Shown here: positions 3,455 to 30,001 of the stretch, in pieces
Position numbering within the stretch: position 1 is the first letter of the stretch
Layout: each line of letters begins with the position of its first letter
Source: Candidatus Eiseniibacteriota bacterium
Lineage (GTDB): Bacteria; Joyebacterota; Joyebacteria; Joyebacterales; Joyebacteraceae
Direction: 5' to 3'
Length of the DNA: 64,000 bases
NCBI GenBank assembly: GCA_043819135.1
Contig: JBDRFG010000106.1
Coordinates: 67,612 to 131,611 of the forward strand
Notes under the pieces: model-generated
The model's input: the letters and a program-made list of their open reading frames with translations, nothing else
What the model was told of the DNA's origin: nothing
Databases searched by the model: none
Position numbers and translations under genes: made by a program

Positions 3455-4573
3455 ATGCGAATCGCGTATCTCTCGATTGGCGGGCACATACACACCGAGC
3501 GGTGGCTCCGCTTTTTCGTGGAGCGCGGCCACGACGTCCATCTGATGACGGTCCAGCCCGTTCCGATAGAGGGTGTGAAGCTGTACGACATCCGCACCGG
3601 CATTGCCGCGAAGCCGATCCACTATGCGGTGGCGCTCAGGAAGGTCAAGCGGATACTGGCGGAGATCAAACCCGACCTCCTGCACACGCACTTCCTCACC
3701 GGCTACGGCTACTGGGGAGCCTTTTCGGGCTTCCACCCGAACGTGCTGACCGTCTGGGGCGACGACGTGTATCTGACGCCGCACGCGTCCTTCCTGAAGG
3801 GGAAGCTGGCGCGCGCGGCGCTCAGACGCGCAGACCTCGTGACGGGAGACTCCGAGGACATCCTGGAACAGGCCGCCGCCATGGGCGCGCCGCGGGACGC
3901 ATGTCACGTCATCCAATGGGGCGTGGACCTGACCGCTTTCAGGCCGGACGCACCCTCAGACGTAAGGGAGCGGCTGGGGATCCCCCCTGACTCGCCCGTG
4001 GTCATCAGCATCAGGAGCTTCACGCAGCCCTACTACAACATCGACGTCATCGTGCGAGCGATCCCCGGGATACTCGAGAAGCGGCCGGACACGCACTTCA
4101 TAGTCGCCGGGAACGAGGGCGACGACGCCGAGTTCAGGGCGCTGGCGGTAGAACTCGCCATAGACGAGAGAGCGCACTTCGTGGGCAAGATACCTCACGA
4201 GGATCTTCCGGGGTACCTCGTGACAACCGACGCGTTCCTGAGCGTCCCGTCCGTCGACGCGACCGCGGTGTCGCTGCTCGAGGCCATGGCGTGCGGGACT
4301 CCCGTCGTCGTGTCAAGTCTGGATTCCGCGCTCGAGTGGGTGACCGACGGCGTGAATGGGCTCGTCGTGCCCCCGCGCGACCAGGCCGCTCTCGAGGCCG
4401 CCATTCTGTCGCTGATCGACTCCCCGGAGCGCAGGAGGGAGTTCGGAGCCGTCAGCGCCGCGATAACGAGGGAGCGGGCCGACCACAACGCGCACATGGC
4501 GAGGATGGAAAAACTCTGCTTCGAGTTGGTGGAGCGCTGGAGGAAGAGCGGTGGAGCCAGGCAGCTCGGTTAG
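3455..4573 (+). CDS. glycosyltransferase family 4 (group 1)
   Basis: 372 aa; N-terminal Rossmann-like domain (MRIAYLSIGGHIHTERW) and a C-terminal EX7E-type GT-B region (LLEAMACGTPVV). Confidence 0.75.
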   Translation: MRIAYLSIGGHIHTERWLRFFVERGHDVHLMTVQPVPIEGVKLYDIRTGIAAKPIHYAVALRKVKRILAEIKPDLLHTHFLTGYGYWGAFSGFHPNVLTVWGDDVYLTPHASFLKGKLARAALRRADLVTGDSEDILEQAAAMGAPRDACHVIQWGVDLTAFRPDAPSDVRERLGIPPDSPVVISIRSFTQPYYNIDVIVRAIPGILEKRPDTHFIVAGNEGDDAEFRALAVELAIDERAHFVGKIPHEDLPGYLVTTDAFLSVPSVDATAVSLLEAMACGTPVVVSSLDSALEWVTDGVNGLVVPPRDQAALEAAILSLIDSPERRREFGAVSAAITRERADHNAHMARMEKLCFELVERWRKSGGARQLG

Positions 4574-6213: not shown

Positions 6214-6951
6214 ATGGACGATGTCGAAAGGCTGGCTTCTGAGGTCCTGAGAAGGCTCAAGGGCAACGAACCCCGCGGCGGCGAGTCCGGTGTGGGCAAG
6301 CCTCAGGCGGACCAGTCGCGCGACGGCGGGTCGCCGAGCAGAGACGAGAGGGGCGGCCAGACGGGGGCCGGCGAAACTTCCTCGGGTATCCCGGTGACCG
6401 TGTCCGGGCGCCACATGCACATATCGAGGGGCGTCCTGGACCGGCTGTTCGGGGAGGGGTTCCAGCTGACCACGCTTCGCGACCTCGGTCAGCCCGGGGA
6501 ATTCGCCTCCGAGCAGACGGTGACCGTCGTTGGACGCTCGATGAAGGCCCTGGAGCGCGTGCGCGTGCTGGGGCCCGTGCGCACCTACACGCAGGTCGAG
6601 CTGTCCGGAACCGATGCCGTGCGCCTCGGGATCGAACCACCCGTAAGGAGATCCGGCGACCTCGTCGGAAGCGAGGGTGTCACGGTGGTCGGGCCGTCCG
6701 GATCGGTGCAGCTCAAAGAGGGCGCGATCATGTCGACCCGTCACGTTCACATGACCGAGCGTGACGCGAGGGAGTACGGGGTCGCCGACGGCGATCTTGT
6801 AAGAATGCGTTTCCCCGGCGACCGGGCAGTGGTTCTCGAGAAGGTACTGATCCGCGTCGGCAAGAGCGCGGCGCTTGAGCTTCACGTGGATACCGACGAT
6901 GCCAACGCCGCCGGAGTGCGGCTGCCGATGACCGTGAAGATCCTCAGCTGA
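6214..6951 (+). CDS. pduL: phosphate propanoyl/acyl-transferase PduL (BMC-associated phosphotransacylase) with N-terminal encapsulation peptide and long Gly/Ser/Arg linker
   Basis: Two PduL-type repeats with GRHMHIS and TRHVHMT metal-binding motifs and a C-terminal HVDTDDANAAG. N-terminal amphipathic helix VERLASEVLRRLKG followed by about 40 aa of low-complexity linker. GAGGA RBS. Confidence 0.85.
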   Translation: MDDVERLASEVLRRLKGNEPRGGESGVGKPQADQSRDGGSPSRDERGGQTGAGETSSGIPVTVSGRHMHISRGVLDRLFGEGFQLTTLRDLGQPGEFASEQTVTVVGRSMKALERVRVLGPVRTYTQVELSGTDAVRLGIEPPVRRSGDLVGSEGVTVVGPSGSVQLKEGAIMSTRHVHMTERDAREYGVADGDLVRMRFPGDRAVVLEKVLIRVGKSAALELHVDTDDANAAGVRLPMTVKILS

Positions 6952-15585: not shown

Positions 15586-16935
15586 CTAGAAGCGGTAGGT
15601 AGCCTCAAAGATGAGGTCCGTATCGTCGACACTCTCGACGTACGCGTACTCGTCGTCCGCCCTCTCGTAGGTGCCGTTCATCCACGCGACATCGATAGCC
15701 AGCACGGTGTCGATGAGTATCCCTGCGCCCAGTGTGAAGTAGGAGCGGTCAGTTGTGACTTCCAGGCCATTGTACGCGATCGGCCGGTACGCGTAGCCGC
15801 CGCGAATCCGGAGGGGCCAGGAGGGAACCGTCAGCTCTGCGCCCACTCCGTACCCGACCTTCTCGTCGTAGAGGGCCCGCCGCTGGGGGACGTCGGCGCT
15901 CTCGTCTGTCTCGGTTATCCTGCCCGCGTAGTCCATCTCAGACCAGTCGGAGTAGCTGAGATCAGCTCCGACGACAATGAAATCCGCCGGCGCGTAGGCG
16001 ACTCCCGCGCGGAACGCGAAGGGCAGCGTCACCTTGTCGGAGAAGAACTCACTCCACTCACCGACCGTCGTAGAATCCGGCATCACCTTCCTGACGTAAT
16101 CCCACCCAGTGCCATCGAACGTCACCGCCGTCGGCGTGTCGATCGCGACTCCGACGGAAAGCCCCTCCATCGCATAGAAGAGACCTCCGATCGTTCCGCG
16201 AAAGCCGGTGATGTCGGCCTCAGACCGCTCCTGTAGGTGAACCTCAGTGTACGTTTCAGAGACATAGTCGACGGTGTCATAGATGTCCCAGACGAAGCCC
16301 CTTGAGTAGTCGCCAACGAGATAGGAGAAGGCAACGCCAAGCGATACAGTGGGAGAGACCTCAAGCGCACAGGCAGCGGACAGCGCCGTGATACCACCGT
16401 CGGAGACGTAGTCCTCTTTGTTATACCATACGCCGCTGGCATCGGGACCATCGACGCCGTCGTCGGGATGCTCGTCCCACTCTATCTCGCCGTCGTAGGC
16501 AGCCAACCTGTCTCCGGCGAAGTCATAGATCCGCTCGGCGCTGAAACCGAGGACAAGGCTGCCCCTGAACGTCGGGAACGGATAGGCGAAACGTAGCGAC
16601 GCCAGGTCCGTCCCACTCAGGTCGGTCCCAAACTCGCTGCCGGACATCTCGCCGTCTACCCCGAGCGAGCCTCTTCTGAAGCCGCCGGAGAGCTCGACCC
16701 TGTTCAACCGTGCCATCGCCGCCGGATTGGACATTATCGCGGTCGCATCGTCAGCGACCGCCATCGAGACGAACCCCATGCCGACTGCCCTCGCGCCGGT
16801 GGCGAGCGTGTTGGTGAGCGGTACCTCGTCCAGCGGAGCGACGAAGCCCGAGTCGGCCCTCGAGGCCGGCGGCGAAGCGAGCATCGCCAGAACGCCGGCA
16901 AGGACCGGGACGTACGTCAGCCGCTTCCTGCTCAT
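15586..16935 (-). CDS. outer-membrane beta-barrel protein, PorV/PorQ (FadL-like) family candidate
   Basis: Signal peptide MSRKRLTYVPVLAGVLAMLASPPASRA. N-terminal motif GARAVGMGFVSMAVADDATAIMSNPAAMA is shared with the PorV-like ORF at 48171. Alternating aromatic strands; C-terminal YRF (terminal Phe typical of OMPs). Start trimmed to the ATG at 16935, which has a GAGGAG RBS. Confidence 0.6.
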   Translation of the reverse strand: MSRKRLTYVPVLAGVLAMLASPPASRADSGFVAPLDEVPLTNTLATGARAVGMGFVSMAVADDATAIMSNPAAMARLNRVELSGGFRRGSLGVDGEMSGSEFGTDLSGTDLASLRFAYPFPTFRGSLVLGFSAERIYDFAGDRLAAYDGEIEWDEHPDDGVDGPDASGVWYNKEDYVSDGGITALSAACALEVSPTVSLGVAFSYLVGDYSRGFVWDIYDTVDYVSETYTEVHLQERSEADITGFRGTIGGLFYAMEGLSVGVAIDTPTAVTFDGTGWDYVRKVMPDSTTVGEWSEFFSDKVTLPFAFRAGVAYAPADFIVVGADLSYSDWSEMDYAGRITETDESADVPQRRALYDEKVGYGVGAELTVPSWPLRIRGGYAYRPIAYNGLEVTTDRSYFTLGAGILIDTVLAIDVAWMNGTYERADDEYAYVESVDDTDLIFEATYRF

Positions 16936-16948
16936 CCTCTTCTCCTCG

Positions 16949-17479
16949 CTAGAAACCCTTCTTCGGCTTCTTCCACAGGTTCCGCTCGTCCTTCTCCTTC
17001 TCTTCGTCCTTCTCTTCGTCCTTCTTGTCGTCCTTCTTGTCGTCCTTCTTGCTCGACAGGTTCGCAGGGGGCGTCGCGCGGCTAGTGCCGGACCCCGGCT
17101 TGGCGAAACCCCAGCCGCTGGATGCCCAGCCTCCGGGACTCCAGAGGTGCCTGGTACCCGTCTCCACCTCTGGCGCATCGTAGTCGTGATCGTAGTCGTG
17201 ATCGTAGTCGTATTGGTCCCACTGCCAGTGGTCGTTGTGCCACCAGGGGGAACCGTAGTAGCTGCCCCAGCGGTTGTGCGAACGTCCGTAGCTGTAGTAC
17301 GGATGACTGTACGGGTGGTAGTAGGCAGCGTCCGCGTGGCAGTCCGCACAGCTTCTGTAGGCGCTGCCCTCATGAGCCACGCTGCTCCCCGTCGGGTGCT
17401 GAAGAACCGTGTAACACCCGGTATTCAGGAGCAGAAGGGAGACCACGAGGAGCGCGCCCGCCTGCGCTGTCCGTTTCAT
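16949..17479 (-). CDS. His/Tyr/Trp-rich lipoprotein with CXXCH motif, YDHD tandem repeats and Lys/Asp/Glu-rich C-terminal tail
   Basis: Lipoprotein signal MKRTAQAGALLVVSLLLLNTG-C. CADCH matches the c-type heme-binding pattern. HPYSHPYYSY and DYDHDYDHDYD repeats. Tail is KKDDKKDDKKDEEKDEEKEKDE...KKPKKGF. GGAGAGGGGA RBS. Upstream of, and probably co-transcribed with, the OMP gene. Confidence 0.6.
   Translation of the reverse strand: MKRTAQAGALLVVSLLLLNTGCYTVLQHPTGSSVAHEGSAYRSCADCHADAAYYHPYSHPYYSYGRSHNRWGSYYGSPWWHNDHWQWDQYDYDHDYDHDYDAPEVETGTRHLWSPGGWASSGWGFAKPGSGTSRATPPANLSSKKDDKKDDKKDEEKDEEKEKDERNLWKKPKKGF
17177..17212. repeat. 12-nt tandem repeat (TAGTCGTGATCG x about 2.7) inside the lipoprotein gene
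   Basis: Direct sequence inspection. Encodes the in-frame DYDH repeat on the minus strand. Confidence 0.5.
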
Positions 17480-17741
17480 ATTGCGTCCCCTCTCCAGCGA
17501 GTGCATCGTTCCATTCTGAAACAACTCTGAAACAGCGGAGTTACCAAGTGAGTTTGACGCCCCGCCAACTTCGTCAATTCAAATATAGCACAGCTCCAGC
17601 ACGCCCCCAAGCGGCATCATGAGGCACCCTCGGGGCCGGCACCCCCCCCGCACGGCGTGGGAGCTCCTCGGGTCCGCACAGAGCTTGAGAGGGACTCTGG
17701 CGCGTGCTAGACTGTGTTCCGTGCACAAGGAGGTTTCTCTG

Positions 17742-23121: not shown

Positions 23122-24489
23122 ATGTTCGGCAAGGTGCTCGTGGCCAACAGAGGTGAGATCGCGCTGCGCGTGATGCGTGCCTGCAAGGAGCTGGACATCC
23201 CCACGGTCGCCATCCACTCCGAGGCGGACGAAGACTCACTTCATGTAAAGTTCGCAGACGAGGCCGTCTGCGTGGGACCGGCGCACGGTGGCCTGAGCTA
23301 TCTCGACGTCAAGGCGATAATCTCTGCCTGCGAAGTGACGGGCGCGGACGCGCTGCACCCGGGCTACGGCTTCCTTGCTGAGAACGCCGATTTCGCCGAG
23401 ATGTGCCAGGCGCACGACGTCACCTTCATAGGACCCACCGCGGACATGATGCGGAGACTGGGAGACAAGGCCAAGGCGCGCGCCCTGATGTCGGCATGGG
23501 GTGTCCCGGTGATCCCCGGCAGTGAGGGCACCGTCGCGGACGCCGAGGAGGGGACCAGGGTCGCCGAATCACTCGGCTATCCGGTAATGATCAAAGCTTC
23601 CGCCGGTGGGGGCGGCAAGGGCATGCGAGAGGCCGCGGACCCGACCGAGTTCGCAGCGAACTTCCTGATGGCGAGAACCGAGGCCGAGGCCGCCTTCGGC
23701 AACGGCGATATCTACATCGAAAAGCTCATCCTGGAACCACGCCACATCGAATTCCAGATACTGGGCGACACCCATGGCACCATCGTGCACCTTGGAGAGA
23801 GGGACTGCTCGATCCAGCGCCGGCACCAGAAACTGATAGAGGAGTCTCCGTCACCGGCGGTCACGCCCGAACTGCGTGAGCGGATGGGGGAGGCGGCGGT
23901 ACGGGGCGCCAGAGGCGCGGGGTACGTCAGCGCCGGCACGGTGGAGTTCCTTCTCGATGCGCGCGATAACTTCTACTTCATGGAGATGAACACGCGGATT
24001 CAGGTCGAGCATCCCGTCACCGAACTCGTGACCGGCGTCGACCTGGTGAAGGAGCAGATCAGGATCGCGGCGGGCGAGCGCATCAGCGTCGACCAGGGGA
24101 AGCTGGGGCTCAGAGGTAACGCGATGGAGTGCCGCATCAATGCGGAGGACCCTGAGAGGAACTTCGCTCCCTGTCCCGGGACGGTCACGGAATTCTACGT
24201 GCCCGGCGGCCCGGGAATCAGAGTCGACACGCACGTCTTCAGCGGATACGTGATCCCTCCGCACTACGACTCGATGATCGCCAAGCTCCTTGCCCACGGA
24301 AACACCAGAGAAGAGGCCATCGCGCGCATGCGACGCGCACTGAGCGAGTTCGTTATCGAGGGCGTCGCGACCACGATACCTTTCCATACCGAGATGATGA
24401 ACGACCCCGACTTCCGAGCCGGCAGGTTCGACACCGGCACACTCGAGCGCAAAAAAAAAGCCCATGAGGAGCTGGTTGCAGCTGTCTAG
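23122..24489 (+). CDS. accC: acetyl-CoA carboxylase biotin carboxylase subunit
   Basis: [26 protein letters not shown]...; ATP-grasp and biotin carboxylase motifs throughout. 455 aa. Confidence 0.95.
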
Positions 24490-24491
24490 CC

Positions 24492-25229
24492 ATGGAACTC
24501 AGCCTCTACACGCGTCCAAGTGACTTCTCAGAGTCCGAATCGAAGGGCAAGTGCGTCGTCGTCATAGACGTTCTGCGCGCTTCCAGTACGATCATCCACG
24601 CCTGTGAGAGCGGTGTCGAGCGCATCATACCGGTGGCCTCCGTGGAGGACGCCACGAAGCTCGTGTCAACCCTCGACCGCAAGAAGACCCTCCTGGGCGG
24701 CGAGCGGGAGGGCATCAAGATCGACGGGTTCGACCTGGGCAATTCACCTCTCGAGTACTCCAGCAAAGTAGTCGAAGGGAAGACGCTCATATTCTCCACT
24801 TCGAACGGCACCATCGCCATCACGAGGAGCGCGTCGGCGAAGGAGATCGTACTCGGCTGCTTCCTGAACCTGGCCGCCGTTGCGACACACGTCATATCGG
24901 GCCGCGCCAAGAAGGTCGCGTTGCTCTGCGCAGGAGACCTCGGGCAGCTGTCGCTCGAGGATTTCGTGTGCGGCGGGCATCTGGTCGACCGAATCGTGAC
25001 AGGCACGCGGGCCAAGACCACGCTCAACGACGGCGCGGTCGCGGCCAGGGCGCTGGCCAATGCCCTTGGAGACGTCGGAGAGGTGGTCAGGAGTTCCTCC
25101 CACGGCCTCCATCTGGCGGAGCTCGGATTCGAGAGCGACCTTGAGTTCTGCTCGCAAGTGGACAAGTACGGAACCGCTCCCGTCGTCGTTGACGGGAGGA
25201 TCTCCCTGCAGAACTCCCACCGTCGCTAG
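24492..25229 (+). CDS. comB: 2-phosphosulfolactate phosphatase ComB-family protein
   Basis: VVIDVLRASSTII...GGEREG...GNSP matches the ComB family. Confidence 0.7.
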   Translation: MELSLYTRPSDFSESESKGKCVVVIDVLRASSTIIHACESGVERIIPVASVEDATKLVSTLDRKKTLLGGEREGIKIDGFDLGNSPLEYSSKVVEGKTLIFSTSNGTIAITRSASAKEIVLGCFLNLAAVATHVISGRAKKVALLCAGDLGQLSLEDFVCGGHLVDRIVTGTRAKTTLNDGAVAARALANALGDVGEVVRSSSHGLHLAELGFESDLEFCSQVDKYGTAPVVVDGRISLQNSHRR

Positions 25230-25362
25230 ACGGTTGCTCTCGGCCCGGGACGGACGGTGACCGCCGCACGCCGCGCGAGTTCGGCGTACCCGGGTCAGCC
25301 GACAGTGAGCACGGTCGAGAACGAGTGACGACGGACACATCACGAACGGGAGGACCTGATAC

Positions 25363-27843
25363 GTGGGACTCTTCGACCACATGACGGATGACAGGCGGCG
25401 GCAACTGGTCGGGGTGCTGTTGCTCTTTCTTGGCCTGCTCGTCGGAGTGAGCCTGGCCACCCACGTCTACTTCTCGCTGTCAGATGACCTAGGTCCCGAG
25501 ATCTGGACGACGCAGCTGGGGCTTCAGAACCGCCAGGTGTCCGGATGGATGTTCGACCTCCTGGGCCTGTGTGCCTGGGTGGCGCCGCTTCTCCTGGTGA
25601 TGTGGGGATGGAACCGAATAGCCGACGGAGATCCAGGCCCTCTGGCTCTCAAGAGCGTGTTCATTCTGGCGGTCTCGATGATCGTCGTCGCGCTCATCTA
25701 TACGGTCGGGGGGGGGCGCACCGCGAACGTGACCGGCGTGGCCGGCGCCCTGATCGCTGACGTCGGCATCCGCCACATCGGCAGACTGGGTACCTTCCTC
25801 GCCGGGGCCGGCGGCATAGTGATTATCACGCTTCTGACCACCGAATTCGACATCGACATGCTCACGGCGCCGTTCATCGCTATTGGCGGTTGGCTGGCAG
25901 GCGTGGGTGAGTCCGCGCGCGATCGGGTCGTGTCGCTGGCGGACCGGGAACCAGGAGAGCGTCTGCGGCCGGCGCGCAAGACACAGAGCGCGTCGAATCG
26001 TGAGAGTGCTCGACCGCGCAAGCGCGCGGGGGAAGAGGGTGTGGTCGAGGAGACGGCCAGGTCGCGCAGAGCGGCGGCGAAGGCCGAGCGGGAGCAGGAA
26101 GCGGAGAACAAGCCGCGCCGCCGCACTCCGTCGGTGCCAAGGATCATGGAGGCGAAGCGGCCGACGGTTCAGAAGCGCGCTCCTAAGCGGGTACCGGTTC
26201 CCGGCGACTTCCGCCTGCCCCCTCTGTCGCTGCTGGACGATCCTCCCAGCAGGACCCCCAATCAGGTGTCGCGGGAGGAACTGCTTGCCAGATCGAGGTT
26301 GCTTGAAGAGAAGCTCGCCGACTTCGACGTGGAAGCCGCCGTGGTTCAGGTGCATCCCGGGCCCATCATCACAAGATTCGAGATCGAGCCGGCCAGGGGT
26401 GTCAAGGTCAGCAGGATCGCGAATCTTCAGGATGACCTGGCGCTGGCCATGAAGGCGACGGCCATCAGAATCATCGCGCCGATCCCGGGCAGGGGGGCGG
26501 TGGGCATCGAGATCCCGAACGAGCATCCCGCCGTCGTGTACCTTAAGGACACGCTCGCGTCCGACGCCTTCCAGAACCTCAAGAGCGAGATACCGCTTGC
26601 GCTCGGCAAGGACACGACGGGCCGCGTCGCCTGCGCCGACCTGGCGAAGATGCCGCACCTGCTTGTGGCGGGCGCCACCGGCTCCGGCAAGAGCATCTGC
26701 CTGAACGCGCTTCTTACGGGCATCATCTTCAGATCGACGCCGGCCGAAGTGCGTTTCCTCCTGATCGATCCCAAGCGTCTCGAACTGCCGCGCTACTCGG
26801 GAATACCTCACCTGATCTCGCCCGTCGTGACGGACGCCAAGCAGGCGGCAATGGCGCTCCAGTGGCTCGTCAGCGAGATGGACCGCCGCTACGACATCCT
26901 GTCGACGCTGACGGTGCGGGACATATACGGTTTCAACAGGCGCATCGAGAACGGCAGCGATCTCGACGACCTGCCCGAGGGAGACAGGCACCGCCTTCCT
27001 CATATCGTCGTGGTAGTGGACGAGTTCGCCGACCTGATGGTAAGGGCGCCCCGCGACGTCGAGGCGCCGGTCCAGCGGCTGGCGCAGATGGCGCGTGCCG
27101 TCGGCATCCACCTGGTCTTCGCGACACAGCGCCCGTCAGTCGACGTGATCACCGGCGTCATCAAAGCGAACTTCGCGTCGCGCGTGTCCTTCCGCGTCAT
27201 CTCAATGACCGACTCACGCACGGTTCTCGACAGGAACGGTGCGGAGACGCTTCTGGGCAACGGCGACATGCTCTTCCTGCCGACGGGCAAGCCGGACCCC
27301 ATTCGACTGCACGGGGCCTTCATCTCCAACGAAGAGACCGCTCGACTCGTTGCGTTCATGCGGAAGCAGGGCCCGCCCGACTACATGTTCGACCTCGAGG
27401 AGAAGGGCGGCATGGCCAGCAAGCTGGCCGCCAGCCAGAAGGACGACTTCTACGAGAAGGCGCTCGAGGTCGTCGTCGGCACGCAGATGGGTTCCACCTC
27501 GCTGCTTCAGCGTCGGCTGTCCGTCGGATACGCCCGCGCCGGGCGCCTGATGGACCTCCTGGAGTCCAACGGGATCGTAGGACCTTTCAAGGGCAGCAAG
27601 GCTCGCGACGTACTGGTCGGTCCCGAGTACCTCGAGGAGATGGCGGCGGCCGGCGTCGCCACGGCGACCGCCGTCGCCGACCCGTTTGAAGATGACGGGA
27701 CTCCTGACGACCCATATGCCGAGGGGGAGTGGGAAGAGCCCGAGGCGGAGGGGACAGAGACCGACGAGGAGGAAGAAGCGGAAGAAGAAGCGGAAGAAGA
27801 AGAGGAAGAAGAGGAAGAAGAGGATGAGGAAGAAGAAGACTGA
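25363..27843 (+). CDS. ftsK: DNA translocase FtsK/SpoIIIE with unusual poly-Glu C-terminal tail
   Basis: N-terminal TM helices; Pro/Arg/Lys-rich linker; motor domain with Walker A GATGSGKS and Walker B VVVDEFADLM; gamma-like winged helix (LYEKALEVVV...QRRLSVGYARAGRLMDLLE); then a roughly 70 aa acidic tail ending EEEAEEEAEEEEEEEEEEDEEEED. Confidence 0.9.
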   Translation: MGLFDHMTDDRRRQLVGVLLLFLGLLVGVSLATHVYFSLSDDLGPEIWTTQLGLQNRQVSGWMFDLLGLCAWVAPLLLVMWGWNRIADGDPGPLALKSVFILAVSMIVVALIYTVGGGRTANVTGVAGALIADVGIRHIGRLGTFLAGAGGIVIITLLTTEFDIDMLTAPFIAIGGWLAGVGESARDRVVSLADREPGERLRPARKTQSASNRESARPRKRAGEEGVVEETARSRRAAAKAEREQEAENKPRRRTPSVPRIMEAKRPTVQKRAPKRVPVPGDFRLPPLSLLDDPPSRTPNQVSREELLARSRLLEEKLADFDVEAAVVQVHPGPIITRFEIEPARGVKVSRIANLQDDLALAMKATAIRIIAPIPGRGAVGIEIPNEHPAVVYLKDTLASDAFQNLKSEIPLALGKDTTGRVACADLAKMPHLLVAGATGSGKSICLNALLTGIIFRSTPAEVRFLLIDPKRLELPRYSGIPHLISPVVTDAKQAAMALQWLVSEMDRRYDILSTLTVRDIYGFNRRIENGSDLDDLPEGDRHRLPHIVVVVDEFADLMVRAPRDVEAPVQRLAQMARAVGIHLVFATQRPSVDVITGVIKANFASRVSFRVISMTDSRTVLDRNGAETLLGNGDMLFLPTGKPDPIRLHGAFISNEETARLVAFMRKQGPPDYMFDLEEKGGMASKLAASQKDDFYEKALEVVVGTQMGSTSLLQRRLSVGYARAGRLMDLLESNGIVGPFKGSKARDVLVGPEYLEEMAAAGVATATAVADPFEDDGTPDDPYAEGEWEEPEAEGTETDEEEEAEEEAEEEEEEEEEEDEEEED
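27766..27840. repeat. GAR (GAA/GAG) trinucleotide repeat tract encoding the FtsK poly-Glu tail
   Basis: About 75 nt of uninterrupted purine triplets (gaagaagaagcggaagaagaag...). The same tract reads as poly-Lys in the +1 frame. Confidence 0.6.
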
Positions 27844-28582
27844 TCCCGGCCTTCGCAGGACGTTGGTTCGCGCGGCGGCATGTGCCCTGGCGACGTGGAT
27901 CGTCGTCGCGCTCCTTCCGCTTCCGTGCGCCGCGGAGGATGGGCAGCGCCCCGAGCCGACTGAGCGCAAAGTGGCCTTCGCCAAGGAGCTTATTGCGAGC
28001 GTCATCGAGCGGTACGAGTCCGAGCGCTCGTACAGGATATCCTTCAGCCAGGAGAGCTACTGGGCTCTCGCGGACACGACGATATCCTCCACCGGCGTCC
28101 TCCTCCTGGAGCGACCCTCGATGCTCTCCGTTCGCTACGGCGACGGCAGCACGATCGCCTCGAACGGCGACACGCTCCGCGTCTACATGTCGCAGACCAA
28201 CCAGTACTTCGTCACGCACGTCGGCCCGGACGACACGGTCATCGATCCTCCTAGAGTGCTCAGGGCATTCATTCCCGACCCGAACGGTCCCTTCCTGGGG
28301 CCAACCGCGGTTGAGGTCGACGCCCCCGCGGGGGGCGGGGAGCCGGTCGAGCGCATAGTGAAGGCGACCCTCTCTCTGATACCCGCCGACGGAACCGGTG
28401 AACCGGCGAGGCTCGAGGTTACCGTCGATCCCAGCAGGAGCATCGTCACGGGAATGGTCGCGCACACGAGATCGGGTGACTTCACTCGATACCGGATTTC
28501 CGAGACTCAGTTCGGGGTCGACACGACACCCGCCGATTTCGTCATCGACATACCGCCCGAAGCAGAGCGTATCGGTGGGTAG
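27824..28582 (+). CDS. LolA-like outer-membrane lipoprotein carrier / periplasmic chaperone candidate
   Basis: Signal peptide MRKKKTDPGLRRTLVRAAACALATWIVVALLPLPCAA. Conserved ftsK-lolA synteny. Start set at the ATG at 27824 (overlaps the ftsK end by 20 nt). The poly-Lys N-terminus in the track ORF is a frame shadow of the GAA repeat. Confidence 0.55.
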   Translation: MRKKKTDPGLRRTLVRAAACALATWIVVALLPLPCAAEDGQRPEPTERKVAFAKELIASVIERYESERSYRISFSQESYWALADTTISSTGVLLLERPSMLSVRYGDGSTIASNGDTLRVYMSQTNQYFVTHVGPDDTVIDPPRVLRAFIPDPNGPFLGPTAVEVDAPAGGGEPVERIVKATLSLIPADGTGEPARLEVTVDPSRSIVTGMVAHTRSGDFTRYRISETQFGVDTTPADFVIDIPPEAERIGG

Positions 28583-28672
28583 CGGAACGAACGCGGCCCA
28601 TCGCGAGCCCGGGCGGCACCGGCGCAGCGACTCACCATTGATCGCCACCAGCACCACAACCGGTAATACCCG

Positions 28673-30001
28673 ATGAAGATAGCTTTCATCACGCTGGGCT
28701 GCCCCAAGAACCTGGTCGATACCGAGGTTATGCTGGGACTCCTGGCGGATGAGGGGCACGAGTTCACTCCGGAAGCCGGGGAGGCCGACACGATAATAGT
28801 GAGCACTTGCTCATTCATATCGGCGGCCGTCCAGGAATCACGTGGCGTCGTGGACCAGTGTCTCGCCCTCAAGGCCGATGGAGCGGTCCGCCATGTAGTA
28901 GTCGCCGGTTGTCTGCCGCAACGTTACGGAGCCGCGACCTGGGGCATGTTTCCCGGTGTGGACGCCGTTGTCGGATGCTCGGACTTCGAGAAGATCGTAG
29001 AGGTCGTTCGACAGGTCGAATCGGACGCCAGCGTCTTCAGCGTTGGCGTTCCTGAGGCGCTCTACGACGATTCGTCTCCGCGAGTCCTCGGCACTCCCGG
29101 ACACATCGCGTACGTGAAGATTGCGGACGGATGCGACAACCGCTGCGCGTACTGCGTCATTCCTTCCATCCGCGGCGCCCTGAGAAGCCGGACACCCGAG
29201 TCGGTGATCCGCGAGGTCGCGAACCTCGCCGAGAGCGGTGTCAGGGAGGTCAACCTCATAGCGCAGGATACAACCGCATACGGCACGGACATTGCACCGG
29301 ATGTTACGTTGCCCGCGCTTCTGTCCGCGCTCGCAGACACCGGTGTACCGTGGATCCGTGTTCTGTACACACACCCGGCGCACGTGACCGACGAGCTTCT
29401 GTCGGTCATGTCCGGCCTGGAGCCCGTGGTGCCGTACCTGGACATGCCCATCCAGCATATATCCGACAGAGTTCTTGCGGCAATGGGCCGCGGGACGGAC
29501 GGTGAGCACATTCGCTCACTGATCAGTCGCGTTCGTGAGGCGGTGCCCGGCGTCTCCATCAGGAGTTCGGTCATGGTCGGCTTCCCTGACGAAACCGACG
29601 CGGAGTTCCAGGAGCTTCTTGCGTTCGTCCGTCAGGGGAACGTAGATCACCTGGGCGTCTTCGAGTACTCGCCCGAACCCGGAACGCCCGCCTTTTCGCT
29701 GCCGGGACGCATCGAGGCCGAGACCGCCTCCGTGCGCGCGCGCGCTATCATCGAAACCATGGAGGGGCTGACCGAGGCGCGGGGACAAAACATGATCGGT
29801 CGTGAGGTCACGATCCTGATTGACAGCTCGGGCTCCGCCGAGGAAGGGCGACCCGCGGTCGGGCGGACCTCCGGTCAGGCGTGGGAAATGGACGGCGAGG
29901 TGCTCGTCGAGCCCGACGACCAGAGCCCCGCGGAAGGCGACTTCGCGCGTGTTAAGGTGACAGGTGTGGCCGGGTTCGACCTTACAGCCAGGATTGCCTA
30001 G
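28673..30001 (+). CDS. rimO: ribosomal protein S12 methylthiotransferase RimO (radical SAM MTTase with TRAM domain)
   Basis: MKIAFITLGCPKNLVDTE (UPF0004 N-domain); radical-SAM CxxxCxxC (CDNRCAYC); C-terminal TRAM domain. Confidence 0.85.
   Translation: MKIAFITLGCPKNLVDTEVMLGLLADEGHEFTPEAGEADTIIVSTCSFISAAVQESRGVVDQCLALKADGAVRHVVVAGCLPQRYGAATWGMFPGVDAVVGCSDFEKIVEVVRQVESDASVFSVGVPEALYDDSSPRVLGTPGHIAYVKIADGCDNRCAYCVIPSIRGALRSRTPESVIREVANLAESGVREVNLIAQDTTAYGTDIAPDVTLPALLSALADTGVPWIRVLYTHPAHVTDELLSVMSGLEPVVPYLDMPIQHISDRVLAAMGRGTDGEHIRSLISRVREAVPGVSIRSSVMVGFPDETDAEFQELLAFVRQGNVDHLGVFEYSPEPGTPAFSLPGRIEAETASVRARAIIETMEGLTEARGQNMIGREVTILIDSSGSAEEGRPAVGRTSGQAWEMDGEVLVEPDDQSPAEGDFARVKVTGVAGFDLTARIA

Follow-up and report, generated by a model that had tools for sequence, protein, structure and literature searches.

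A long acidic C-terminal tail on FtsK in one lineage of Candidatus Eisenbacteria, encoded in part by a GAA/GAG triplet tract that contains the start of a lolA-like gene

The ftsK gene in the window, the 64,000-nt stretch of Candidatus Eiseniibacteriota DNA analyzed here, encodes a DNA translocase that does not end shortly after its gamma domain but continues for another 74 aa as an acidic tail with a net charge of -40. The last codons of this tail form a GAA/GAG triplet tract, and the start codon of the next gene, a lolA-like gene, lies inside it. The tail is real and lineage-wide, and we found no published description of it: a full-text literature search returned no publication that connects FtsK with a DNA mimic, an acidic tail or an extension that is glutamate-rich or C-terminal, and none in which both Eisenbacteria and FtsK are mentioned. 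The tail may compete with DNA for the basic surfaces of its own protein, a tentative proposal that is weighed below against its alternatives.

The open reading frame (ORF) is a complete, genuine FtsK in every defining feature. The N-terminal four-transmembrane (4TM) anchor is recognized by the Pfam family FtsK_4TM (PF13491) at aa 12-164 with 27.9 bits against a cut-off of 23.1, and the motor consists of FtsK_alpha (PF17854; aa 285-386, E=1.5e-34) and the FtsK_SpoIIIE ATPase (PF01580; aa 394-593, E=9.7e-63), with GATGSGKS as the Walker A sequence in the translation. Between anchor and motor lies a K/R-rich linker (aa 165-286, ~25855..26220, + strand) with a net charge of +12. The gamma domain of FtsK recognizes DNA motifs named KOPS (FtsK-orienting polar sequences) and contacts XerD. 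The solved gamma domains 2J5O, 2VE8/2VE9, 2J5P and 5DCF (a XerD fusion) align over the whole gamma domain of the window protein, and these structures end a few residues past it. Likewise, the E. coli FtsK equivalog profile of NCBIfam aligns to aa 284-755, reaching the profile's own last residues. Since this profile ends at aa 755 and gamma at aa 752, the protein extends 71-74 aa beyond the normal end of an FtsK. Exact-sequence database look-up of the protein matched no record. The gene and the parts of its 3' region are as follows.

25363..27843, + strand: ftsK coding sequence, 826 aa, GTG start, TGA stop (ORF list, Pfam, NCBIfam FtsK profile)
27436..27618, + strand: gamma (winged-helix, KOPS/XerD) domain, aa 692-752 (PF09397, E=8.9e-25; solved gamma structures; confident AlphaFold2 fold)
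27619..27699, + strand: post-gamma helix (EYLEEMAA) and Ala/Val-rich spacer, aa 753-779 (clade alignment; AlphaFold2 helix)
27700..27765, + strand: acidic/aromatic segment TPDDPYAEGEWEEPEAEGTETD, aa 780-801 (acidic-flanked aromatic aligned in most clade members; low-confidence AlphaFold2 coil)
27766..27840, + strand: GAR triplet tract (R, A or G) of 25 codons, encoding EEEEAEEEAEEEEEEEEEEDEEEED (Tandem Repeats Finder, period 3/12; codon count)

The full extension, VGPEYLEEMAAAGVATATAVADPFEDDGTPDDPYAEGEWEEPEAEGTETDEEEEAEEEAEEEEEEEEEEDEEEED, directly follows this bona fide gamma winged-helix domain, as an earlier, sequence-only reading of the DNA had stated, and has three parts. First, its initial ~27 aa, VGPEYLEEMAAAGVATATAVADPFEDDG, comprise a short helix and then the Ala/Val-rich spacer; tail-less FtsKs likewise have an (E/D)xYLEE sequence at this position and then terminate. 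Second, the acidic/aromatic segment contains a Tyr and a Trp, the latter encoded at 27730-27732. Third, the tail closes with the product of the triplet tract. The sequence-only reading had described the whole as a poly-Glu/Asp tail of roughly 70 aa; the length agrees with the 74 aa found past gamma, but only 40 of these residues (54%) are Asp or Glu, and near-pure poly-E is restricted to the last ~25 aa. Within it, EEEEEEEEEEDEEEED provides 16 consecutive D/E residues, where a D/E repeat is defined at the sequence level by ten or more in a disordered region of a DNA-binding protein. No conserved hydrophobic tip of the SSB type is present at the C-terminus: the window protein ends in ...DEEEED, and the ends of its clade relatives vary (...EEED, ...DEER, ...RYEE, ...DDTY).

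The DNA of the tract had been taken for about 75 nt of pure GAR triplets. The 25-codon tract is there, but four of its codons differ (two GCG, one GAT and one GAC), leaving 21 GAA or GAG codons. Tandem Repeats Finder reports 27766..27839 at period 3 and at period 12, with the unit GAGGAAGAAGAA in 6.2 copies and 83% matches. The pattern (GAR)x8 with at most one mismatch has 13 matches in the window, all within 27766..27837, and none across 100 dinucleotide-preserving shuffles; the tract is unique in the window and is not expected by chance. Its GC content is 0.47, compared with 0.65 in the gene body; of the Glu codons, 53% are GAA in the tail and 25% in the rest of ftsK and three neighboring genes. 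The +1 frame of the tract is Lys-rich, as had been noted, and reads RRKKRKKKRKKKRKKRKKRMRKKK. On the opposite strand, two ORFs at 27507..27881 (poly-Ser) and 27214..28005 (poly-Phe/Leu) were rejected as genes, being mechanical by-products of the repeat. Imperfect tandem repeats also occur upstream of the tract, one in the Ala/Val spacer (27644..27678, + strand; 18-nt unit, 1.9 copies) and one in the acidic/aromatic segment (27719..27772, + strand; 21-nt unit, 2.6 copies), which suggests that the entire extension grew by duplication.

The tail marks a single clade. A homology search gave ~40 FtsKs at 64-87% identity, named Candidatus Eisenbacteria where the source names them, after which identity drops abruptly to 45% or less among other Eisenbacteria, Latescibacteria, Gemmatimonadota and others. 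The gamma end could be placed in 34 clade proteins, hereafter the scorable members, and all of them carry a D/E-rich extension after gamma, 39-125 aa long (median 96 aa) and 36-71% D/E, from which Lys and Arg are nearly absent. The sequence-only reading had allowed that orthologs might lack the tail, and none of these does. By comparison, 41 homologs from outside the clade have 9-20 aa after gamma, and a second control of 78 complete FtsK 3' ends from diverse metagenome contigs, mostly distant FtsKs recovered in a metagenome scan for related loci, has 7-35 aa, with no acidic-rich ending among them. The statement that FtsK normally terminates just after gamma is thereby borne out by 119 other FtsKs with 7-35 aa; this short ending is a typical, non-defining trait of the family, and the 74 aa of the window protein depart from it. 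E. coli FtsK, P. aeruginosa FtsK and B. subtilis SpoIIIE share with the window protein the 4TM anchor, a variable linker, the alpha/beta RecA-type motor with its Walker A and gamma, and they end in the same short range, whereas the window FtsK adds ~66-74 aa of predicted disordered polyanion and its relatives up to 125 aa.

The search was also made with gamma alone, using phmmer against 1.8 billion representatives; among the best 150 matches, which are dominated by fragments and multi-gamma proteins and are therefore weak as a survey, a D/E-rich extension appears only in the clade representatives P0021 and P0124. Many of the top gamma matches (P0121-P0260) are small proteins of 150-500 aa with two to four tandem FtsK-gamma domains and no motor.

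The tail was found in more than 40 independent assemblies from JGI, ENA and NCBI, made with different assemblers, on contigs of up to 478 kb. Gene order, compared between the window (23122..30001) and the loci L018-L020 and L101-L103, is conserved in the clade: efp, accB, accC, a 2-phosphosulfolactate-phosphatase-family gene, ftsK, the lolA-like gene, a MiaB/RimO-type radical-SAM gene, radC and mreB. Because the tail comes from many sources and assemblers and sits in a conserved gene order, the assembly artifact against which the earlier reading had warned is excluded as far as the existence of the tail is concerned. An exact 24-mer from the upstream flank of the tail had no match in metagenome contigs.

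Across the aligned clade tails, the amino-acid composition appears to be more conserved than the DNA repeat. A nearly invariant VGPEYLE is followed by a hydrophobic Ala/Val/Gly spacer, and an aromatic residue, mostly Trp, is aligned in an acidic context (EWEE) in most members, while the length of the D/E region is highly variable. Several subclades share an F/Y-EEE-(D/V)-(V/I)-E-(I/V)-DD motif, which the window's subclade lacks, having near-pure poly-E instead. The codons differ as well. The window's subclade encodes its D/E region as a near-pure GAR microsatellite, whereas distant clade members use mixed GAC/GAT/GAA/GAG codons in a non-repetitive order, interrupted by other residues; purines account for a fraction of 0.89-0.98 of the tail DNA in close relatives but 0.68-0.82 in distant members, and the D/E content stays high. 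Moreover, the ftsK frame is open in most members, though each GAA or GAG codon is one G-to-T change away from a stop. The non-repetitive codons of the distant members and the open frame despite these stop-prone codons suggest that the negative charge is under selection. The tails have a median net charge of -57 in the clade, and the net charge of the whole protein is about 0 in other FtsKs versus about -46 in the clade.

The K/R-rich linker between membrane and motor has a median net charge of +16 in the clade versus +7.5 in other FtsKs, a difference (Mann-Whitney p~1e-15) that comes from one lineage. Co-evolution of linker and tail was examined and set aside as supporting evidence: the two charges are not correlated within the clade, and the +12 of the window linker lies inside the outgroup range.

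The gamma domain and the tail were modeled together by AlphaFold2 from a 21-sequence alignment. Gamma is folded with a predicted local distance difference test score (pLDDT) of 83-95, and one short helix follows it (EYLEEMAA, model residues 73-80, corresponding to aa 755-762). The remaining ~64 residues of the tail are coil at a pLDDT of 50-57, and the tail is thus predicted to be disordered. No solved structure in the PDB matches the tail.

Close relatives with 82-94% identity to the window or to one another in the flanking DNA have tracts of 13 to at least 65 codons, in agreement with the earlier expectation that tract length would differ greatly between related genomes.

Window: 74 nt
L005: 96 nt
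L001: 131 nt
L003: 191 nt
L002: at least 137 nt, the contig ending within the tract
L004: at least 132 nt, the contig ending within the tract
L102: ~40 nt, 13 codons

Higher-order repeat units of 9, 12 or 27 nt vary from relative to relative, and these together with the differing lengths point to independent slippage in each. A phase-variation switch was rejected, since the triplet unit, also in its 9-, 12- and 27-nt higher-order forms, keeps the frame and the distance from the lolA-like ATG to the ftsK stop is kept.

The tract is also a recurrent assembly breakpoint in the clade. Two contigs, L002 (88 kb, ending at 6522) and L004 (14 kb, ending at 6513), terminate inside it. L101 has an in-frame TAA inside the tract (3904-3906) with 29 more D/E codons behind it, and a TAG (6374-6376) stands in frame just ahead of the tract in L004, with the repeat intact behind it; these stops may be real truncating alleles or sequencing errors. 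L103 and L005, which are near-conspecific, have flanks that are 99.6% and 98.7% identical and yet differ in the tract (L103:3890-3942 versus L005:6394-6496): that of L103 is ~50 nt shorter and shows A-to-C/T changes at several second codon positions (E to A/V, D to A), the lolA-like ATG is lost, and the gene call of its lolA-like gene starts within the signal peptide. The L103 version looks error-prone. Owing to the contig breaks, the in-frame stops and these oddities, the exact length and sequence of the tract are unreliable in any metagenome-assembled genome (MAG), the window included, and annotated FtsK C-termini and lolA starts in MAGs of this clade need caution, because short-read assemblies break at the tract or are corrupted by it.

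The 3' end of the tract overlaps the next gene, with the following features.

27811..27814, + strand: Shine-Dalgarno-like GAGG, 9 nt upstream of the lolA-like ATG (putative, read from the sequence)
27824..28582, + strand: lolA-like gene, 252 aa (weak Pfam LolA match; position; ortholog matches)
27824..27843, + strand: 20-nt overlap of ftsK and the lolA-like gene, with the ftsK TGA lying within the lolA-like codons ACT-GAT (Thr-Asp)
27824..27934, + strand: putative signal peptide MRKKKTDPGLRRTLVRAAACALATWIVVALLPLPCAA (judged by eye from the sequence)

The assignment of this gene to LolA is a weak one. The window protein scores 20.3 bits with PF03548 (E=4.8e-4), below the cut-off of 23.6, and 24.4 bits with TIGR00547 (E=1.7e-5) against a cut-off of 112; what speaks for a LolA-like protein is its position, together with the matches of its positional orthologs to PF03548, which are mostly weak as well. 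The order ftsK-lolA is conserved in all loci that extend downstream, and it is the order in E. coli too, where lolA lies directly downstream of ftsK as it does in the window.

The ATG at 27824..27826 does lie inside the tract, as had been proposed, formed at a GAT-GAG codon junction of the ftsK frame and in frame with the ORF ending at 28582. The first five codons of the lolA-like gene, MRKKK, are the +1 frame of Glu/Asp codons, and its N-terminus, judged by eye, is rich in K/R, continues with ~20 hydrophobic residues and reaches CAA|ED, where the bar is the putative cleavage site. The poly-Lys N-terminus that the sequence-only reading saw on the next ORF accordingly has the +1-frame origin given to it, but it is merely open frame upstream of the true start; the corresponding long ORF, which begins at a TTG at 27686 and runs through poly-Lys/Arg, is a mechanical consequence of the repeat. 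Another TTG, at 27863, was rejected as the start because it would lose the basic N-terminus, has no workable Shine-Dalgarno spacing and, unlike the ATG in the tract, is not conserved. The ATG of L001, L003, L005 and L102 precedes the ftsK stop by 13-19 nt, and a hydrophobic stretch comes after the first residues of the relatives' lolA-like proteins, which read M[RK]K(K)[KR]TDR (MKRIDR in L102). As called, the lolA-like genes of L019 and L020 share 17 and 32 nt with ftsK; the call in L018 begins 53 nt downstream, but an ATG within the tail would make its signal peptide more convincing.

The whole purine tract resembles a Shine-Dalgarno sequence, and its 3' end would double as ribosome-binding site, start codon and basic signal-peptide start of the lolA-like gene. 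The locus would then be a compact case of dual coding, with acidic codons giving the next gene these elements in another frame. An effect of tract length on translational coupling to lolA, which the sequence-only reading had suggested, is unlikely: the ATG stays 13-19 nt before the stop, and since the tract expands upstream of it, the geometry of the overlap should be the same whatever the tract length.

Regarding the function of the tail, we favor a tethered, intramolecular electrostatic competitor of DNA, which we regard as possible rather than probable, with most of our doubt resting on the mechanism. This reading by analogy takes up the suggestion of the sequence-only reading that the tail could be a DNA mimic or an autoinhibitory element. 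The tail would sit for short times on the basic surfaces with which FtsK contacts DNA; in gamma these would be the recognition helix and the wing, and the K/R-rich linker or the pore of the hexamer may be further ones. This occupancy would lower non-specific DNA binding, and it may speed or sharpen loading at orienting (KOPS-type) motifs. How gamma finds short orienting motifs in the chromosome is still discussed in kinetic terms, and autoinhibition by D/E repeats has so far been shown mainly for eukaryotic chromatin proteins. We favor this competitor because the anatomy is HMGB1-like and because gamma searches for short motifs amid vast non-specific DNA, a setting in which such tails help. 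The anatomy consists of 40-84 acidic residues, predicted to be disordered, behind a spacer of ~25 aa after the winged helix, in six copies per motor.

The 30-residue D/E repeat of HMGB1 binds the protein's own DNA-binding domains and cuts their DNA affinity ~100-fold, makes target association ~10-fold faster where decoys are plentiful, and confers an autoinhibition that can be transferred to an unrelated homeodomain (PMC10250230). Repeats of this type, with at least ten consecutive D/E residues, a flexible spacer to the DNA-binding domain and predicted disorder, are also those of UBF1, Sox11 and RFX1, and the tail described here shares these traits; however, they belong to eukaryotic chromatin and to highly basic domains, whereas the window protein presents a bacterial winged helix of about +2 on a hexameric motor. 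A comparably faster search would suit a protein that seeks 8-bp guide motifs on a whole chromosome. Among bacterial proteins, SSB and RecA also have acidic C-termini, SSB with the tip DDDIPF. Hfq, a ring-forming nucleic-acid-binding protein with a likewise disordered acidic C-terminus, has an acidic C-terminal tip that mimics nucleic acid and competes with non-specific binding (PMC5606850). The tails of Hfq, SSB and RecA have a handful of acidic residues and defined tips, in contrast to the FtsK tail with its 40-84 acidic residues, no conserved terminal motif and microsatellite coding. Mycobacterial FtsK is reported to have a positively charged, disordered N-terminal extension with functional consequences (PMC13277299), which is likewise clade-specific charged disorder, but of the opposite charge, at the opposite end and in a different phylum.

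Several observations weigh against the proposed competitor. The net charge of gamma is only about +1 to +2, so that it falls short of the HMG boxes of HMGB1 as an electrostatic partner, and the AlphaFold2 output gives no information on contacts between tail and gamma. The linker, the other possible partner, shows only a moderate excess of basic charge in the clade, and this charge does not follow that of the tail. The tailed clade goes back to one evolutionary gain, and its many sequences therefore do not count as independent evidence of function. The in-frame stops of L101 and L004, if real, would make the long poly-E run dispensable, and the more than three-fold variation in tail length implies that no particular length is needed. 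A natural FtsK with a tethered polyanion directly after gamma would be a ready-made test of D/E-repeat autoinhibition in the target search of a bacterial translocase.

Alternatively, the tail may be a near-neutral by-product, in which a slippage-prone GAN/GAR tract expands and decays because poly-D/E at this C-terminus is harmless. The only targets of selection would then be the last ~20-30 nt, with the Shine-Dalgarno sequence, the start codon and the K/R codons of lolA, and perhaps the continuation of ftsK translation up to the lolA start. We consider this unlikely, although much of the DNA-level evidence fits it: the range of 13 to at least 65 codons with lineage-specific units among close relatives, the stops in L101 and L004 with intact repeat behind them, the enrichment of GAA, which is expected from amplification of a repeat unit, and a 3' end of the tract where ATG, stop and overlap are conserved. 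Against it, every scorable member, down to 64% identity, keeps at least 39 aa (median 96), the distant members hold their D/E composition with non-repetitive codons, and aromatic positions and motifs are conserved inside the tail; furthermore, a ribosome-binding site needs no 200-370 nt, and no such tail occurs in the 119 other FtsKs. Were the tail neutral, it would be merely a curiosity of repeat evolution.

The conserved aromatics in acidic sequence (EWEE; F/Y-EEE-V-E-I-DD) would also be consistent with a docking or chaperone element, an aromatic-anchored acidic region that recruits a Xer recombinase or a topoisomerase or captures stripped nucleoid-associated proteins. One subclade of tails (P0025-P0028, P0031 and P0036) has a KKRRPR-type basic patch in mid-tail, e.g. 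TPATKKRRPHADD or HPKKRHPRKDHDD, with a conserved DE(Y/F)EEE(D/N)(V/I)(T/E/K)(Y/C)D after the patch that is possibly a short linear motif, and such a patch in the subclade P0025-P0031 and P0036 would suit docking, as would the known contact between FtsK gamma and XerD (5DCF matched). Still, we judge this role distinctly unlikely, since the candidate partners are hypothetical, the window's subclade has near-pure poly-E in place of the F/Y-EEE-V-E-I-DD motif, and the extreme C-terminus is not a conserved hydrophobic tip as in SSB.

The tail might instead be a pseudo-substrate. Without DNA, the six tails of a hexamer would fill the gamma domains and the positively charged pore or linker and hold the motor away from non-specific DNA, to be displaced only at proper loading sites; during translocation they might also serve as a sink for basic nucleoid proteins stripped off the DNA. 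We give this a slim chance; if true, the tail would be the first DNA mimic made of D/E repeats to regulate a bacterial double-stranded DNA pump, with a strength tunable by microsatellite slippage.

There is little likelihood, in our estimate, that the tail is a passive polyanionic bristle that provides solubility or repulsion from the anionic membrane, neighboring hexamers or translocated DNA without any specific site. Its predicted disorder, the shift of whole-protein charge in the clade and its unconstrained length are what such a bristle would show, but the conserved aromatic positions would go unexplained, and other FtsKs do without such a tail, among them relatives whose linkers are similarly basic. 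An assembly or sequencing artifact, or a frameshift hiding a stop just after gamma, is scarcely credible: contigs L002 and L004 do break in the tract, and L103 and L005 do differ only there, with odd E-to-A/V changes, but more than 40 independent assemblies carry the tail, the first ~50 aa of the extension, which are non-repetitive, show in-frame conservation, and the 74-nt tract of the window is shorter than a typical read.

Elsewhere in the window, the only other D/E-rich low-complexity segment belongs to a 191-aa ORF at 16949..17524 (- strand), which has a lipoprotein-like N-terminus (...LLLLNTGCYT...), a middle rich in His, Tyr, Asp and Trp with DYDHDYDHDYD repeats, and the mixed-charge tail KKDDKKDDKKDEEKDEEKEKDE. 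Directly after this ORF, a gene starts at an ATG near 16934 with the signal peptide MSRKRLTYVPVLAGVLAMLASPPASRA.

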